Source of the DNA: a virus
Taxonomy: Duplodnaviria; Caudoviricetes
Direction: 5' to 3' (one strand)
DNA length: 64,000 nucleotides
IMG/VR virus record: IMGVR_UViG_3300010283_000006
Span: 4,007 to 68,006 of that record
Of the stretch, positions 21,619-28,202 are shown piece after piece. The translations under genes were made by a program, and so were the position numbers. Within the stretch, counting starts at the first letter, position 1. Every line of letters starts with the position of its first letter. Under the pieces are notes generated by a model. That model was not told where the DNA came from, searched no databases, and worked only from the letters and a program-made list of their open reading frames with translations.

Positions 21619-21868
21619 TTTCTTTTTTTCTCCTTTTTTGTGTTTGTTTTAAGCAGTAATTTTACTACTACACTAACACACAAATTTAATTGTATGCTAG
21701 TATTAAGTAAAATTTTCGTTTTTATCTAAACTATAACTTCTTGTTTCATAAATTTCTAACAAGATAGAAAATATAAAAATTCTTTTTTTATCTGCCGTTT
21801 ATATTCGGCAGAAGTGCGGAACAGTCTTTTATTCCCTGCTATAAAGTGTTTATAGCCTTCTTTTAAAT

Positions 21869-22130
21869 GCTTACTTCTATGAGCTGTTTCAACATTTAAT
21901 AACTTAAAAGATTGATACATTATGTTATTTTTTGGTTACTTCTATGAGCTGTTTCACCGCATGGAATATTATAATTCGCTTACTTCTATGAGCTGTTTCA
22001 GCGTTCCTAACATATATTCTTCTATATAGGCTTACTTCTATGAGCTGTTTCAGCCTGATATAAGCTAACTACATTTTTAATCATTAGCAAGCTATATATT
22101 ATATATCGGTTACTTCTATGAGCTGTTTCA
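21869..22130 (-). repeat. Array of five 23-nt repeats G(C/G)TTACTTCTATGAGCTGTTTCA, irregularly spaced (hairpin array)
   Basis: Copies at 21869-21891, 21934-21956, 21978-22000, 22030-22052, 22108-22130; gaps 42, 21, 29, 55 nt. Confidence 0.95.
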
Positions 22131-22240
22131 CCGCTATATACTATATAACTGATATTTATTTTCAATGTACAAATACGCTAGGGAAACAAGCAAATCCGCT
22201 TATCGGATTGTAACTATTCTTTTTCCCTTTCATTGTATAT

Positions 22241-22269
22241 ATTATACTACGATTTTATGATAATTGCAA
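22241..22269 (-). promoter_or_regulatory. Sigma70/A-type promoter driving the hairpin array and leftward early genes
   Basis: Minus strand TTGCAA-17 nt-TATAAT. Confidence 0.75.
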
Positions 22270-23425
22270 GCGTTTTTATAGCTTTTTCTAAAAAAATCTT
22301 ATAAAAATCTATGGAAAATAGAATACAAGAATATTCAGTTTATTTGAAAATCCGCTTCAAAACGTCATATTTAGCTTGTACGGCAATGAAGCTTTTACGC
22401 ATATAATTATATTCAAAAATTTTTTTCGTTGAATATGAACCAAAATAACAAGCGGCTTTTTAACAGTGTATTTTGGTATAAGTAGGGAAGTACGCATAAA
22501 TTTATAAAATAGCGTGGCAAGGCTGTAAAAGTGTGTAGTAGTCTAATATTGCAATTTTATAAAATAGTTGCGTTTATCCGCATTTCATACTATTATGTAT
22601 GGTAGTTGTTGGCTATGAAATACATAATATTTACCGGGTACAATAGTTATTATTCATCAATATATTACACAATATAATAATAGTTATTGATAAGAGTAGC
22701 TATAATGTAATGGGTTATGGTTGTTGATTGATAATACACATTCAGTCTAAATTTGATTAAGTAATAATTATTATTCATACAATGCAACAAAATAGACAAG
22801 GCTATATAGTGTATACTAATAAAAATACAGTGTACACTACTGCATACACCATGTTTACTGCATTTTCCCATGTACAGTTAAACATAGCTTATTGATTGTA
22901 TTAGTTAGCATGAGTTAACATAACTTGTCAATCAGATATAGTATTATATATATGATTATATCGTGAATATAGTTAGATAAAGCTAACTGAAAAGACAATA
23001 TAATTGTAGTTATATTGTTGTTACAAGGCTTTTCCCCGTGTAGGTTATAATTCATAGCGTGGCGGTATGTTTTTCCAGACCTGAAAATTCTGAAAATTCA
23101 GTATAAACGCGGTGAAATTCAAACAAATTCTGTCTATATCTTTACATTTTTAGTCAATCTCATTCAACAAAACAATATGTTTACACTTTTTATATAATTA
23201 TTACAAATATAAATCACATTTATACAAATATAATATTTATCTTGTCAATGTTAGCAACTGATATAACACTACCTATGGTATCTACAATTTAACCAAAAAG
23301 GGTGTATCAGGTACTATATAATGAAGAAAAATTTTTATATATTGATGAAAATATCGAAAATCACTGGAAATCTAACAGTAAACCAGTGTTATGCAAAATA
23401 AAATCCGAAAATCCGTAAATAGTGA

Positions 23426-23454
23426 TTGACAACCATATATAAAAGTGATATACT
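23426..23454 (+). promoter_or_regulatory. Strong sigma70/A-type promoter
   Basis: TTGACA-17 nt-TATACT, 30 nt before an AAGGAG-led ORF. Confidence 0.85.
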
Positions 23455-23484
23455 ATACTTAACAAAAGAAAGGAGCTACTGTAT

Positions 23485-23715
23485 ATGAGAAAAATGGAAA
23501 TCTATAAAATCGCACTCAATAATTTAACAGATAAAGAATACAGACTGCTGGAGCTTTATCTTATCGAACTGGGATATTACTATGGTGATGATGATAAGAC
23601 AGTAGAGTGGGTACAGAAATCAGACTTAAAGAAAATCAAGCAGTTTGTTAGAAATCTTGATAATGCTACTATCGAAATCTTAGATACTAGAATTGTTGAT
23701 TTTGTTAAGGAGTGA
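23485..23715 (+). CDS. Small early protein (paralog of 23940-24149)
   Basis: YKIALNNLTDKEYRLLELYL; AAGGAG RBS. Confidence 0.7.
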   Translation: MRKMEIYKIALNNLTDKEYRLLELYLIELGYYYGDDDKTVEWVQKSDLKKIKQFVRNLDNATIEILDTRIVDFVKE

Positions 23716-23719
23716 TAAT

Positions 23720-23866
23720 ATGCCAAAACTAACCAAAGCAGAGTTTATTGAAATGTTTGAAATCGCATGGAGCAGTACCTGTCAGAGTAATTTCTCATAC
23801 ATTGAAGAAGTTGGAGCTGAACAAGCTCTACAAGATGAATGGGACAGTATGATGGATGGCTTGTAA
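23720..23866 (+). CDS. Small acidic early protein (48 aa, not in ORF track)
   Basis: AAGGAG RBS; MPKLTKAEFIEMFEIAW...DEWDSMMDGL. Confidence 0.65.
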   Translation: MPKLTKAEFIEMFEIAWSSTCQSNFSYIEEVGAEQALQDEWDSMMDGL

Positions 23867-23939
23867 GAAGATTATACCTTTAAACCTTTCAAATTGACTG
23901 CCAGTGAAAAGCGTAAATACATGAAAGTGGTAGAAGAAT

Positions 23940-24149
23940 ATGAATAATAAAGAATATAAAATCATAATCAGTAATATCACCATTGATGAACGAAAGCTTA
24001 TTGATATGTACCTAGATGGATTTGATGTTGATGTAATCGACGATGAAGATTATACAATCATATATCAAGATGGTGTAGATGTAGCTTTAATCAATCAATA
24101 CATAGACAGATTAAGCAAAATCGTTGAAATCCATATTGAACGAGAATGA
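23940..24149 (+). CDS. Small acidic early protein
   Basis: YKIIISNITIDERKLIDMYL...DVDVIDDED. Confidence 0.65.
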   Translation: MNNKEYKIIISNITIDERKLIDMYLDGFDVDVIDDEDYTIIYQDGVDVALINQYIDRLSKIVEIHIERE

Positions 24150-24159
24150 GAGGTGTATT

Positions 24160-24357
24160 ATGAAGAACGCAGTAGAACAAGCTAAAACATTAGCTAAGAG
24201 AATGACTGAACTTGAAAATAAATCATGGAAAGGTGAAAAGCTGACAGACGATGAAAAGATTGAATTAGATAATCTTGATACAAAGGTAGCTGAAATTGCA
24301 AACAAGAATAATGTGAATTTCTATCAGCTCCGTATTAAATGTGATGAAACCAATTAA
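24160..24357 (+). CDS. Small helical early protein
   Basis: GAGGTG RBS before MKNAVEQ. Confidence 0.65.
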   Translation: MKNAVEQAKTLAKRMTELENKSWKGEKLTDDEKIELDNLDTKVAEIANKNNVNFYQLRIKCDETN

Positions 24358-24384
24358 TCAAACAACTATCAGAAATTCATTATC

Positions 24385-24415
24385 AAGCACTGGCTTAATT
24401 GCTGGTGCTTATTTT
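24385..24415 (+). terminator. Intrinsic terminator
   Basis: AAGCACTGGC-ttaatt-GCTGGTGCTT then T-rich tail. Confidence 0.75.
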
Positions 24416-25698
24416 ATTTTGTGTTCTGAAACTACTAGCCTATAGATTATACCTGTACTGCTTTAAAAAGCTAAGTATTTTTTATTCACAATTTTGCCAT
24501 AATCAACCATAGTAACCATTATACTTTTACCCATATAGATTAAGCCTTAATTGATTTTTCGTGTCAGAATTGATGTTTGCGATATACTCTCTAATTAGTC
24601 AGTGACACAGATTATCATAGTCAGCAGGAAAGCGGAACTATACTTATTATCATACTCTTAACTAGCTTTTTCTTGAACAGGAAAGGTAGTTGTCTTATTA
24701 GTATTAAGCTATAACTCATTAACCAGTTAATACTCTATCAGAAAGTTAGTAAGCTATATACTACTATAAGCTACAAACCGACTAACTTTCCCTGATTAAT
24801 TCTTAGAAATTCGTTTGCCAGTTATTCTTGCGTAAGCGTTGACACATACACCTCTATGCAATCATGTGTGTTTGACGATAATCATAAAACAATAACATAA
24901 TAAACAGGGATAATATATCTATGTAAGCTAAAACTGTTATCGTGAGTTAAACACCATGATTATTGATGATTTATCAGCAACTTTACCAGTAAATAGCTCA
25001 ATTTCTATCAGAATGTGACTTAATTTGTGAAATCTTTGTAAAATCTTCTAATTTAGGGTTTCAAAAATCTCTCTGTGTGCCTATATTATGTAAGGTTAAA
25101 CACTTACAAAGCTAGTAACTCTATATATTACAAGATTACGAACGTAGTGAGTAATCGCAGTAATATATCAAAGAATTAATAAGTAACTTTTGAGTTTAGA
25201 AATCAATCGAAACTTTAATGTGAGATTGATTGATTAAACGAAAAATGTTACGCTAATATTACTTAGCTAAAGTTAAGTTAAAGCCAGTATATAGTTAGTG
25301 ATTAAAATATAGTTTGTCAAAACATATACAGGTTAAAACTTCGTTAGCAGAAATCCCTTTTTGTATACTTTTATAGATGATAGATTTTAAAGAACAAATG
25401 ATGGTTTAGAATAGTCTTGATGTACTATTATGATTGTATAAGAGCTATACAAAGAGTAAGACATAAAACTAGGCTACAAAGTTTACGCTGTTCTGATAGC
25501 GGTTTAGAGTAGTCCTGATTTAGATTTGCTAGTAATAAATATAGTAAACATAGTGGTAAGTTTGTAATATCGAGAATGTAGCCTATTCTTGATTGAGTTT
25601 ATAACCACTAAATATTGAAGTTAATAGCTATAACTTGTGCTTAGAGGGTTAGATTACCTGACAAGGAATTTCGCTAAAGTTATGGCTATTAATGATAT

Positions 25699-25774
25699 GC
25701 TGATATAGCTCAACTGGTAGAGCAAGTCACTTGTAATGACTAGGTTGTGGGTTCAAGTCCTACTATCAGCTCCA
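25699..25774 (+). tRNA. tRNA-Thr(UGU)
   Basis: 76-nt cloverleaf: GCTGATA/TATCAGC acceptor, AGTCA-CT TGT AA-TGACT anticodon arm, GTTCAAGTC T-loop, encoded CCA. Confidence 0.95.
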
Positions 25775-25782
25775 ACTGATTT

Positions 25783-26222
25783 TATCGTATAAGCTGATAC
25801 TTGTAAAAGATTAGACTTATAACGATTAAAGCAATGCAGATAATTAGTGGAGCAATCTGTACGCAGACCTCTACGATAGCATTGCAATAAATTTAGATTT
25901 GATTGTACAGGCAAAGAACCTAACCATAACCTAGTGTTATGTCATTAGAGCAATAAGACCTGTTGAGCGGTAGCGTAAAAAGTAATCTCCTATTATTAGG
26001 TTGCTACTTGCAAAAGAGTATTGATAGGCAAAGTACCCAACGATTAGCTTAATGCTATGGTTAGAGTTATTGGAGCAATAAGACCTATCTAAATAGTGAC
26101 GTAAAATATATATATTCCGTTCAGGTTGTCACTTTTGATAATATGGCGTAATTGATGTAAGTCATTGTATTAGTTCCAGTAGACGCATTAGTTTTCCTGA
26201 AAGTCGAGAAACTTATACGATA
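25783..26222 (+). ncRNA. Large multi-domain structured RNA (family unassigned; ROOL/GOLLD-like context)
   Basis: 11-bp closing helix 25783-25793/26212-26222, two duplicated covarying modules, no ORF, between tRNA and terminator. Confidence 0.7.
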
Positions 26223-26286
26223 CATATACACCCTTGTTTAGTGATGGAAATAGCTATTTCAAGTTGCCAATAAATAAATTAACTTT

Positions 26287-26321
26287 AAGAGCGTTAGCTG
26301 ATAAAGCTGGCGTTCTTTTTT
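26287..26321 (+). terminator. Intrinsic terminator
   Basis: AAGAGCGTTAGCT-gataa-AGCTGGCGTTCTT plus T-run. Confidence 0.8.
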
Positions 26322-26345
26322 ATTTTAACCAAAAAGGAGAATTTT

Positions 26346-26531
26346 ATGATTACTGATTTAATTAATGTACTTATCTATGCACTTTCAACATTTTTAACAG
26401 GGACTGCTTATTTTGCTATCTTTTTCTTTTGGTGTGCTGTAATTTCGTATTACTTGCGCAAACAGGGTTATGTTATAGGAGTTGAAGAAGTAGATGCTGA
26501 AAGCTCTGAAGAAGAAAAGACCGAAAAATAA
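26346..26531 (+). CDS. Small membrane protein
   Basis: Hydrophobic N-terminal half, acidic tail, AAGGAG RBS. Confidence 0.6.
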   Translation: MITDLINVLIYALSTFLTGTAYFAIFFFWCAVISYYLRKQGYVIGVEEVDAESSEEEKTEK

Positions 26532-26621
26532 AGTCAAGAACAAAAAGATTTATCAAGTCAACAACTTGAACAGCAAAGAAGCAAAGAAAGATATTCTTGA
26601 TTTTAAAAAAGGTAGATATTA

Positions 26622-28202
26622 ATGGCTGTAAAGTCAAAGTTTGATGTTCTAAGTATATTAGAAGATTTAGAGCAAGACAACGAAAATGTTGTAAGTGAAG
26701 AAATTATAGAAGAATGTAGGTGTAACCTGGAGTTATTTGGTAAAACATTCTTCCCTAGAATATTCACTGGTGACTTCTGTGATTTTCATAGAGAAGTGTT
26801 TAAGTCACTAGAGGATTATGTAATTAACAAGTTAGACGAAAAATACTATTATGTTCGAGCCGCTCCACGTGGACATGGTAAAAGTCAGATATTATCTTTT
26901 TTGTTTCCGATATGGTGTATTTGCTATGGTTACGCAAAAAACATCTTAATCGTGTCAGACAGTAGCGAACAGGCTATGCAGTTTATAATGGCTATTCGTG
27001 ATGAGTTAGAAGATAACGAAACTTTAAGATTGGCTTATGGTGATATGGTTGGTAATCGAGTATGGGCAAATGCAAAGATACAAACAATCAATAAAGTACA
27101 GATAGTTGGTAAAGGTGCTGGACAGAAATTACGTGGTATTAAATATGGACATTATCGTCCTGATGTAATTATCGTAGATGATTTAGAGAATGATGAAGCA
27201 GTAGAAACTGAAGCACAAAGACAGAAACTTTTGAACTGGTTTCAGAAAGCTTTAATTCCTTGTGGTAGTACAACTGAAAAAATCATCTATATTGGTACTG
27301 TACTGAACTATGAATCTTTGTTGAACAGATTACTGACAAGTCCTGAATATGCTATGTGGGACAGAAAGCGTTATCAAGCTGTAATTAAGTTTTCTGATAG
27401 TGCTAAATGGGAACAATGGGAAGAAATTCTTAAATCTGATGATATTGAAAGACCAGCCGAAGAAGCTAAAGCTTTCTTTGATAAAAACAAAAAGTCTATG
27501 CTTGCTGGAACACAAGTATTATGGAAAGATAAGCAACCTGATTACTACTATGACTTAATGTTGATGCGAGTAATGAATCCTGATGCTTTCGACAGTGAAT
27601 ATCAGAATGACCCGGTAAGTGAAAATCAGAGAACATTTAAAGAAGAATGGTTTCAATACTGGGAGATTTTACCTGAAATCAAACAGATATATATTGCTGT
27701 TGACCCTAGCTTAGCTAAAACAACAAAGAGTGATAGAAGCGCAATAGTTACTATTGGCAGAGGTAAAGACAATTTTCTGTATGTTATTGAAGCTGATATT
27801 AAAAGGCGTAAACCTGATAAGATTATCGACGATTTAATTAGTAAGTGCATAACATATCAAGACAAGCTGGTTAAGGTTGGTATTGAAACAATTCAGTTTC
27901 AGTATTTCTTTGCACAGGAATGTGGCAGACGAGCATTAGCACAGAATATAGCATTGCCTATTGAGCCTTTACAGAATATGTCTGACAAAGAGTTAAGAAT
28001 TAAAGGGTTAGTTCCTTTGATTAAAAATGGTTATATTAAGTTCAATAGAAATCAGAAGTTGCTTTTAGATGAACTTAGACGTTTTCCTAAAGGTTCTGAT
28101 GATGGTATGGACGCTTTAAAATCTGCTACTGATTTAGTATTCCCTAATGGTAAAAACATTCCGATGGGTTTCTGTTTTGGCAGTTTGAATAATTTACGAT
28201 AG
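26622..28202 (+). CDS. terL: Terminase large subunit
   Basis: APRGHGKS Walker A, IIVDDLEN Walker B, IAVDPS nuclease, DDGMDAL C-terminus. Confidence 0.95.
   Translation: MAVKSKFDVLSILEDLEQDNENVVSEEIIEECRCNLELFGKTFFPRIFTGDFCDFHREVFKSLEDYVINKLDEKYYYVRAAPRGHGKSQILSFLFPIWCICYGYAKNILIVSDSSEQAMQFIMAIRDELEDNETLRLAYGDMVGNRVWANAKIQTINKVQIVGKGAGQKLRGIKYGHYRPDVIIVDDLENDEAVETEAQRQKLLNWFQKALIPCGSTTEKIIYIGTVLNYESLLNRLLTSPEYAMWDRKRYQAVIKFSDSAKWEQWEEILKSDDIERPAEEAKAFFDKNKKSMLAGTQVLWKDKQPDYYYDLMLMRVMNPDAFDSEYQNDPVSENQRTFKEEWFQYWEILPEIKQIYIAVDPSLAKTTKSDRSAIVTIGRGKDNFLYVIEADIKRRKPDKIIDDLISKCITYQDKLVKVGIETIQFQYFFAQECGRRALAQNIALPIEPLQNMSDKELRIKGLVPLIKNGYIKFNRNQKLLLDELRRFPKGSDDGMDALKSATDLVFPNGKNIPMGFCFGSLNNLR

Follow-up and report, generated by a model that had tools for sequence, protein, structure and literature searches.

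The non-coding DNA directly behind a tRNA-Thr gene in an uncultured ~68-kb phage contains a diverged tandem duplication of a ~125-nt unit, each copy of which is predicted to form two short hairpins, and this block is carried by some phages of the lineage and missing from a sibling. The stretch analyzed here, referred to as the window, is 64,000 nt long and covers bases 4007-68006 of an IMG/VR virus record with a length of 68,006 nt and a completeness rating of 97%; pig-gut metagenome runs from a dozen studies contain near-identical sequence. We read the block as accessory cargo in the plus-strand 3' trailer of the tRNA-Thr transcription unit that ends at a terminator at position 26287. This reading as a whole stands at roughly even chances; its structural and transcript part is likely to hold, and a decoy function for the repeated modules is a tentative proposal.

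A preliminary description of this DNA had placed an ORF-free region directly behind tRNA-Thr and ahead of a terminator, and this was confirmed on the plus strand. The tRNA-Thr gene (anticodon UGU, with an encoded CCA) was located at 25699-25774 (+) by ARAGORN and is matched by the Rfam tRNA model at 71.7 bits. No ORF of at least 90 aa is present in 21620-26345 of the window, and the plus strand has none of at least 30 aa in 25775-26233. The intrinsic terminator lies at 26287-26317 (+), with the terminator part as a whole spanning 26287-26327, and consists of a 13-pair stem and then a T run. Another intrinsic terminator is found upstream at 24385-24410 (+), and the ~1.9-kb stretch between the two holds one tRNA gene and no credible ORF. 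The sequence from the tRNA end to the terminator folds at z = -2.44 relative to shuffles on the plus strand vs z = -0.50 on the minus strand. The stem of the 26287 terminator includes G.U pairs that are functional on the plus strand only, and substitutions at this stem in the sibling locus L076 retain pairing via A-U and G.U. Because this G.U-rich stem and a U-G pair in one of the L076 module stems (described below) can pair only as plus-strand RNA, the non-coding unit between the two terminators is assigned to the plus strand.

The ribosome-binding site of a 61-aa gene lies within about 20 nt downstream of the 26287 terminator. This gene (26346-26531), the first of the late operon, encodes a hydrophobic membrane protein and is followed by the large terminase gene (TerL, 26622-28202; PHROG 38, E = 1e-114) and, downstream of TerL, by a gene for the portal protein (PHROG match). 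A 42-aa ORF at 26494-26622 overlaps the 3' end of the 61-aa gene, and its own end coincides with the terminase start; in L112, L120, L121, L134, L135 and L136 the equivalent position also has a called ORF, of 32-47 aa, and the 42-aa product may be a small basic packaging protein.

The A-B-A-B layout seen earlier in the region behind the tRNA corresponds to a block at 25888-26140 whose two units can be aligned end to end with about 70% identity, and every motif quoted for it is present where it had been placed. Unit 1 (25888-26012, +, 125 nt), delimited by alignment with unit 2 and by the pair counts, begins with module A1 (25907-25963, +), in which helix P1, formed by ACAGG (25907-25911) and CCTGT (25959-25963), leads to an A-rich internal loop and helices P2 and P3. 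Module B1 follows at 25970-26007 (+), with GTAGC (25970-25974) and GCTAC (26003-26007) closing around GUAAAA...AGGUU. Unit 2 (26013-26140, +, 128 nt) is a tandem paralogue related to unit 1 by compensated pairs and contains module A2 (26023-26089, +), closed by GATAGG (26023-26028) and CCTATC (26084-26089), and module B2 (26096-26132, +), closed by GTGAC (26096-26100) and GTCAC (26128-26132). Each unit thus has the same two predicted hairpins: A with its conserved A-rich internal loop, and B with GUAAAA and AGGUU adjoining the closing stem.

The modules had been described as covarying, and the pair counts agree with this. Counts were made for four helices (P1, P2, P3 and the B stem) in four sequences, both units of the window and both of L076. 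In every unit copy the 18 pairs are all standard, and none is broken, with six changed on both sides (C-G to U-A in P1, U-A to C-G in P2, A-U to G-C in P3, and three in the B stem) and one changed to U-G; these counts lean towards the structure because the helices were read from the counted sequences themselves, and the four copies amount to only about three independent ones (two paralogues and one diverged sibling). The changes in the L076 B2 stem, which reads GCGAT/GTCGC, are U-A to C-G and C-G to U-G, the latter being the U-G pair valid on the plus strand only. When the 3' partner columns were slid by 1-3 positions as a control, no compensated pairs were seen and 19-50% of positions paired.

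Conservation between the window and L076 gives independent support for the module, beside the pair counts. Identity is 100% for A1, 97% for B1 and 98.5% for A2, with the modules at 96-100% overall, and the tail that separates them from the terminator (26141-26286) stands at 78% with 25 gap columns. A further variant is present in pig-gut runs X1 and X5; the block changes listed for it lie in linkers and B loops and leave the A and B stems and the A-loop positions untouched, and another 33 differences beyond those listed are spread across the whole stretch compared. The units consist of short stems around large conserved loops and are not more stable than shuffled sequences (z of +0.4 and +0.6), and the support for their helices is purely comparative. 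As judged from these alignments, the four local helices and the module sequence are under selection.

Within its lineage the block is accessory and dispensable, being cleanly absent from a sibling phage. The TerL of this sibling, L077, is 99% identical to that of the window, and the two are 96% identical over 24114-25885; beyond this, L077 passes from the hairpin that precedes the block (A0) directly to the tail, with window positions 25886-26132 absent. L076 and L077 derive from one and the same metagenome. Two units each are found in the window, L076, L127 (identical to L076), X1 and X5, and zero in L077, DNA run X8 and contigs of metatranscriptome run X18. Four sequencing runs were examined as assembled contigs, in which both forms are present and from which RNA ends, strand and level are not readable; gaps in the coverage of X18 and X8 carry no weight either way. 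A block-minus contig of the X18 RNA library spans the tRNA 3' end through the two hairpins ahead of the block (H0 and A0), a weak observation in material that may include DNA. Gain or loss of a module between near-identical phages of one gut sample is typical of accessory, conflict-driven cargo.

The same dispensability and lineage restriction would be expected of a neutral by-product, that is, a functionless recent slippage duplication in a fast-evolving spacer, at a tRNA locus prone to recombination. The lack of unusual stability in the units, the mosaic nature of the locus with its homing endonucleases in kin, and the occurrence of AATAA(A/T)TT at both borders of the block fit with such an origin. 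Against it, although the units have diverged to about 70% identity, all 18 stem pairs are intact and six are compensated, and the module sequence is far better kept than the adjoining tail; we regard a neutral origin as rather unlikely. The block could also act at the level of DNA, as pac or cos repeats, as an origin or single-strand initiation signal, or as direct repeats ~125 bp apart that bind a protein. It lies just upstream of the terminase gene, no small terminase was recognized between the tRNA and TerL, and conserved 8-14-mers recur in the units as direct repeats. However, duplex binding sites would not be expected to show compensated changes in short stems, the U-G pair of L076 B2 and the G.U-rich terminator point to plus-strand RNA, and a sibling with a 99% identical terminase does without the repeats, which makes a DNA-level role improbable.

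The region lies on the same strand as, and directly upstream of, a strong terminator, a late-operon gene and TerL, and it may for this reason be read as a cis-acting leader, the hairpins of which would modify RNA polymerase or refold and in so doing control read-through at 26287 into the late (packaging, head) operon, like HK022 put or lambda pR'-tR'. The HK022 put sites, in work by King and colleagues from 1996, are reportedly paired stem-loops in two covarying copies; put RNA acts in cis and is required for terminator read-through. The likeness to put and to the lambda late leader extends to a structured RNA before a terminator ahead of late genes and to covarying paired stem-loops in two copies, and a terminator is also found between the tRNA region and the small membrane-protein gene in several kin (L078, L114 and L121). 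Whereas put is required in cis, the A-B block is missing from L077, a sibling that retains this terminator and the late genes; by this comparison, late expression seems not to need the block. In addition, the modules are set apart from the terminator by about 150 nt of poorly conserved tail, no terminator is evident in L116 between its tRNA region and the small gene, and no late promoter was identified, sigma-70-like sites being no commoner than in shuffles. A leader function is consequently possible and on balance unlikely, and we favor the reading of the block as cargo in the trailer.

Beyond this locus in a few pig-gut phages of near-identical sequence, searches did not find the unit. In a blastn search of 24400-26400 against GenBank phages, the tRNA alone was matched. 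The 15-mer GGAGCAATAAGACCT occurs at 74 loci in IMG/VR, of which the sole real one is L021, from the same contig as L076. Tight and loose patterns for module A, run against IMG/VR twice, 185,579 species genomes and JGI metagenomes, recovered only L021/L076 and L127; the remaining matches were in GC-rich coding sequence, hence chance, and were rejected. A covariance model of the unit (R1) found only its training copies in 470 kb of related loci and in the whole record of the phage itself, and when the trailer was compared by BLAST with 10 phages whose TerL is 63-79% identical, only the tRNA, a 23S-related box described below and small genes were similar. The earlier suggestion of a possible new class thus stands insofar as the module is unclassified, but the module is confined to one small pig-gut phage lineage and is dispensable there; on present evidence it is a narrow, lineage-specific element. 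Hairpins resembling B, of the form stem-GUAA...GGUU-stem, occur in L107 right after tRNA-Thr (1672-1786 and 1797-1861) and in L078 between tRNAs (2659-2736). We do not claim a wider B family because the loose descriptor gives chance matches in coding DNA too.

The preliminary description had joined the region into a single ~440-nt molecule closed by an 11-nt stem between TATCGTATAAG (25783-25793) and CTTATACGATA (26212-26222). This closure could not be upheld: the helix is at chance level, and every relative breaks it with no compensating change. For perfect 11-mer inverted repeats within 600 nt, the expected number is 0.10 in the 546-nt stretch concerned, and by the same criterion 3.2 are expected and two observed in the 5-kb ORF-poor zone. 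L076, L077 and L127 have CTAATATAATA as the 3' arm, runs X1 and X5 have the substitutions 26214 T>A and 26218 C>T in it, and the 5' arm is unchanged in each case. A second proposed helix, ATTTAGAT/ATCTAAAT, shares positions with the stem that closes A2 and has a mismatch in X1 and X5 (26093 A>T). Because the closing helix is chance-level and not conserved, the architecture is a chain of local hairpins, like beads on a string, and not one closed fold.

The first of these beads is H0 (25784-25826, +), a strong local hairpin that the TATCGTATAAG arm forms instead of the long-range stem; its MFE is -13.6 kcal/mol (z = -4.1, with 0 of 200 shuffles as good), and it is 100% identical in L076, L077 and L127. 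The pairing of GCAATGC (25831-25837) with GCATTGC (25879-25885) was borne out, closing the stable hairpin A0 (25831-25885, +; MFE -18.6 kcal/mol, z = -3.2), which encloses GGAGCAAT...AGACCT. A0 is found in block-plus and block-minus phages alike and is 96-98% identical in kin. Its inner helix is not proven, because most relatives carry 25848 T>C, which gives a C.A mismatch in the inner stem. As a possible ancestor of module A, A0 has repeat D3 (74% over 31 nt), which is no better than chance repeats in the zone. At the other end, the variable tail between the modules and the terminator (26141-26286, +) includes the 3' arm of the closing stem that was not upheld and folds at z = +0.3.

Membership in, or kinship with, the ROOL and GOLLD families had been suggested for this RNA, and no match to either was found in a cmscan search against 4227 Rfam models at E ≤ 10. 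At the gathering threshold, the tRNA was the only match in the whole window; at E ≤ 10, positions 25000-26800 gave the tRNA and noise, with no ROOL, GOLLD, raiA, riboswitch or ribozyme. The best match apart from the tRNA was group-II-D1D4-2, at 14.3 bits vs a gathering score of 36. ROOL and GOLLD RNAs are often encoded beside tRNA genes in phages and prophages, possibly co-transcribed with the tRNAs, and ROOL has a mean length of 581 nt (PMC5737381). The trailer, which begins 1 nt behind tRNA-Thr on a phage contig, has a context of the ROOL/GOLLD type that is not defining alone, and its length of ~545 nt from tRNA to terminator (~300 nt in the block-minus sibling) is close to that mean. One could therefore picture a distant relative of these large ornate RNAs that forms multimers. 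However, neither covariance model (RF03087 for ROOL, RF01998 for GOLLD) was matched even at E ≤ 10, local hairpins were the only structures upheld in the trailer, with no supported long-range helix, multistem junction or pseudoknot, and about half of the RNA is an optional duplication restricted to one phage lineage. We consider a ROOL/GOLLD-like RNA very improbable.

Derivation of the units from the neighboring tRNA was likewise rejected, with Smith-Waterman alignment to tRNA-Thr giving p = 0.5-0.6 against shuffles. The Rfam tRNA model matches 25699-25771 only, and ARAGORN run at 80% of its default score thresholds (-ps80) called only tRNA-Thr; lowering this to -ps70 added calls that are not plausible, with introns as long as 687 nt. 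The units show no likeness to E. coli rRNA, sense or antisense.

Several known RNAs resemble parts of this arrangement. In T4, RNAC and RNAD sit inside the tRNA cluster. Like these, the trailer is a phage non-coding RNA alongside a tRNA, but RNAC and RNAD are single species of ~120-140 nt with demonstrated expression, whereas the trailer is a set of tandem modules read from sequence alone, and the T4 RNAs have no sequence or model similarity to it. They are described as small phage RNAs of the tRNA region, of unknown function (PMC9697503). The pseudo-ToxI of phage PhiTE, a mimic of a type III antitoxin RNA, is a repeat RNA that neutralizes the toxin of a host abortive-infection system, and its copy number shifts under selection by host defence (PMC3475682). 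The A-B units share with it tandem RNA repeats whose copy number differs between close phages, here 0 or 2. In form they depart from ToxI repeats: ToxI units are ~36 nt in tandem, with one pseudoknot each, and are cut out by ToxN, whereas the A-B units are 125 and 128 nt and have two hairpins. The 3'ETS of leuZ in E. coli is reportedly a sponge RNA freed from the trailer of a tRNA transcript by processing, as described by Lalaouna and colleagues in 2015. Like it, the phage RNA lies in the trailer of a tRNA transcript and is proposed to act in trans; the 3'ETS is short and base pairs with known sRNAs, and the conserved parts of the phage trailer are internal loops.

With these precedents in mind, the trailer would probably offer repeated binding sites for some factor. 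The unit would be transcribed in the order of a long-stem hairpin with antisense to 23S rRNA, tRNA-Thr(UGU), and the ~545-nt trailer with H0, A0, two A-B units, the tail and the terminator. Processing of the tRNA, by RNase P at its 5' end and by trimming at its 3' end, would release a stable trailer RNA, shielded by H0 and the terminator hairpin. Working in trans, the repeated A and B modules could then bind a host or phage protein or RNA at several sites, serving as a decoy or sponge whose dose is raised by duplication and tuned by duplication and loss, as in pseudo-ToxI (PMC3475682). The circulation of block-minus phages, the unexceptional thermodynamics of the units and the C.A mismatch inside A0 count against this explanation. 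No host RNA bearing the module A motif, and so available for mimicry, was found in an exact-pattern scan of 185,579 species genomes, in which the one match was a chance hit in a coding region and diverged mimics would escape. Ordered by the weight we give them, the alternatives run from the cis leader through neutral duplication and a DNA-level site to a ROOL/GOLLD-like RNA. Phage tRNA regions are usually annotated as tRNAs and spacers, and here a spacer carries a structurally selected module. If the module binds a host factor, it would be an RNA-only addition to the short list of phage RNA decoys, for which natural plus/minus phage pairs are available for testing.

The long-stem hairpin upstream of the tRNA is located at 25621-25692 (+), with a 16-17-bp stem (25621-25636 with 25677-25692) and a ~40-nt loop, and ends 6 nt before tRNA-Thr. 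A 23-nt box in the loop (25654-25676) is the reverse complement of 23S rRNA with 22 of 23 positions matching; its target is at E. coli rrl gene positions 1925-1947/1950, in the helix 70-71 region. The hairpin folds at -25.6 kcal/mol on the plus strand (z = -4.5) and at -15.1 kcal/mol on the minus strand. The box is single-copy in the window and is the only non-coding sequence common to the window and more distant kin, in which its identity to the rRNA antisense is 25/25 (L107), 26/26 (L114), 24/25 (L132), 22/24 (L116), 17/18 (L121) and 20/21 (L135). A 56-nt query from L107 that includes the box matched the 23S gene, in antisense, in all 5,426 of 5,426 E. coli genomes. A literature search for phages integrating into 23S rDNA returned nothing relevant.

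In the window, L107, L114, L132 and L135, no more than ~50 nt separate the box from tRNA-Thr, on one side of it or the other; other tRNAs intervene in L121 and L116, at distances of ~185 and ~530 nt. As stem sequences are unalignable between lineages, the box hairpins were folded singly (L107 1508-1583, L114 3250-3331, L132 3222-3301, L116 3561-3627, L121 1480-1551 and L135 92-161). In all seven lineages the box is presented in a ~40-nt loop of a 15-18-bp stem (z of -2.1 to -4.8, with weaker minus-strand energies), and the stems differ completely between lineages and include G.U pairs valid on the plus strand only. Of the five kinds of substitution found in the box, four are C>U or A>G changes that would still allow wobble pairing with the rRNA; this is suggestive, with AT mutation bias as a caveat. 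Recurring as it does across lineages, this hairpin may be the more general lead. The tRNA-Thr is the processing punctuation between the non-coding RNAs that flank it. One may go further and imagine a tRNA-punctuated operon of phage effector RNAs, with the loop-presented anti-23S box 5' of tRNA-Thr and, 3' of it, an expandable A-B module whose conserved internal loops would bind a host factor, such as a ribosome-associated or defence protein, and with an arms race setting the number of copies (0 or 2), as in pseudo-ToxI; we offer this version as speculative and doubtful.

In related phages, among them those whose TerL is 63-79% identical, the locus is a hypervariable cargo space for tRNA arrays and homing endonucleases. 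The same place in the relatives examined (L078, L080-L082, L114, L116-L119, L121, L130, L132 and L136) holds one to eight tRNA genes in differing combinations; tRNA-Thr(UGU) is found at the locus in most kin examined, and none was called in L079. A GIY-YIG homing endonuclease is encoded at the locus in L116-L119 (L116 2269-2901), and an HNH-like or GIY-YIG endonuclease in L114 (2297-2947) and L132 (2448-3098). The T4 tRNA region includes the GIY-YIG homing endonuclease segB, and the arrangement of tRNAs and endonucleases in the relatives resembles the T4 tRNA/segB region.

Other short repeats were noted in the same non-coding zone. Five copies of TTACTTCTATGAGCTGTTTCA with 44-78-nt spacing are present at 21856-22136, in the divergent intergenic zone (repeat families D1 and D2). 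The exact 9-mer CTATCAGAA occurs seven times in the window, and four of these copies, at 24366, 24735 and 25005 (+) and at 25491 (-), cluster in the 1.1-kb ORF-free stretch upstream of tRNA-Thr. The equivalent zone in relatives has scattered short repeats of its own, with AATCAGAAA in L121, AATCAAGG in L116 and AAACAG in L107; these and CTATCAGAA may be iteron-like or regulator sites. Also upstream of the tRNA, the ORF-free sequence at 25086-25310 forms strongly stable hairpins on both strands (z of -2.5 to -3.8), which are 93-96% conserved in L076 and L077.
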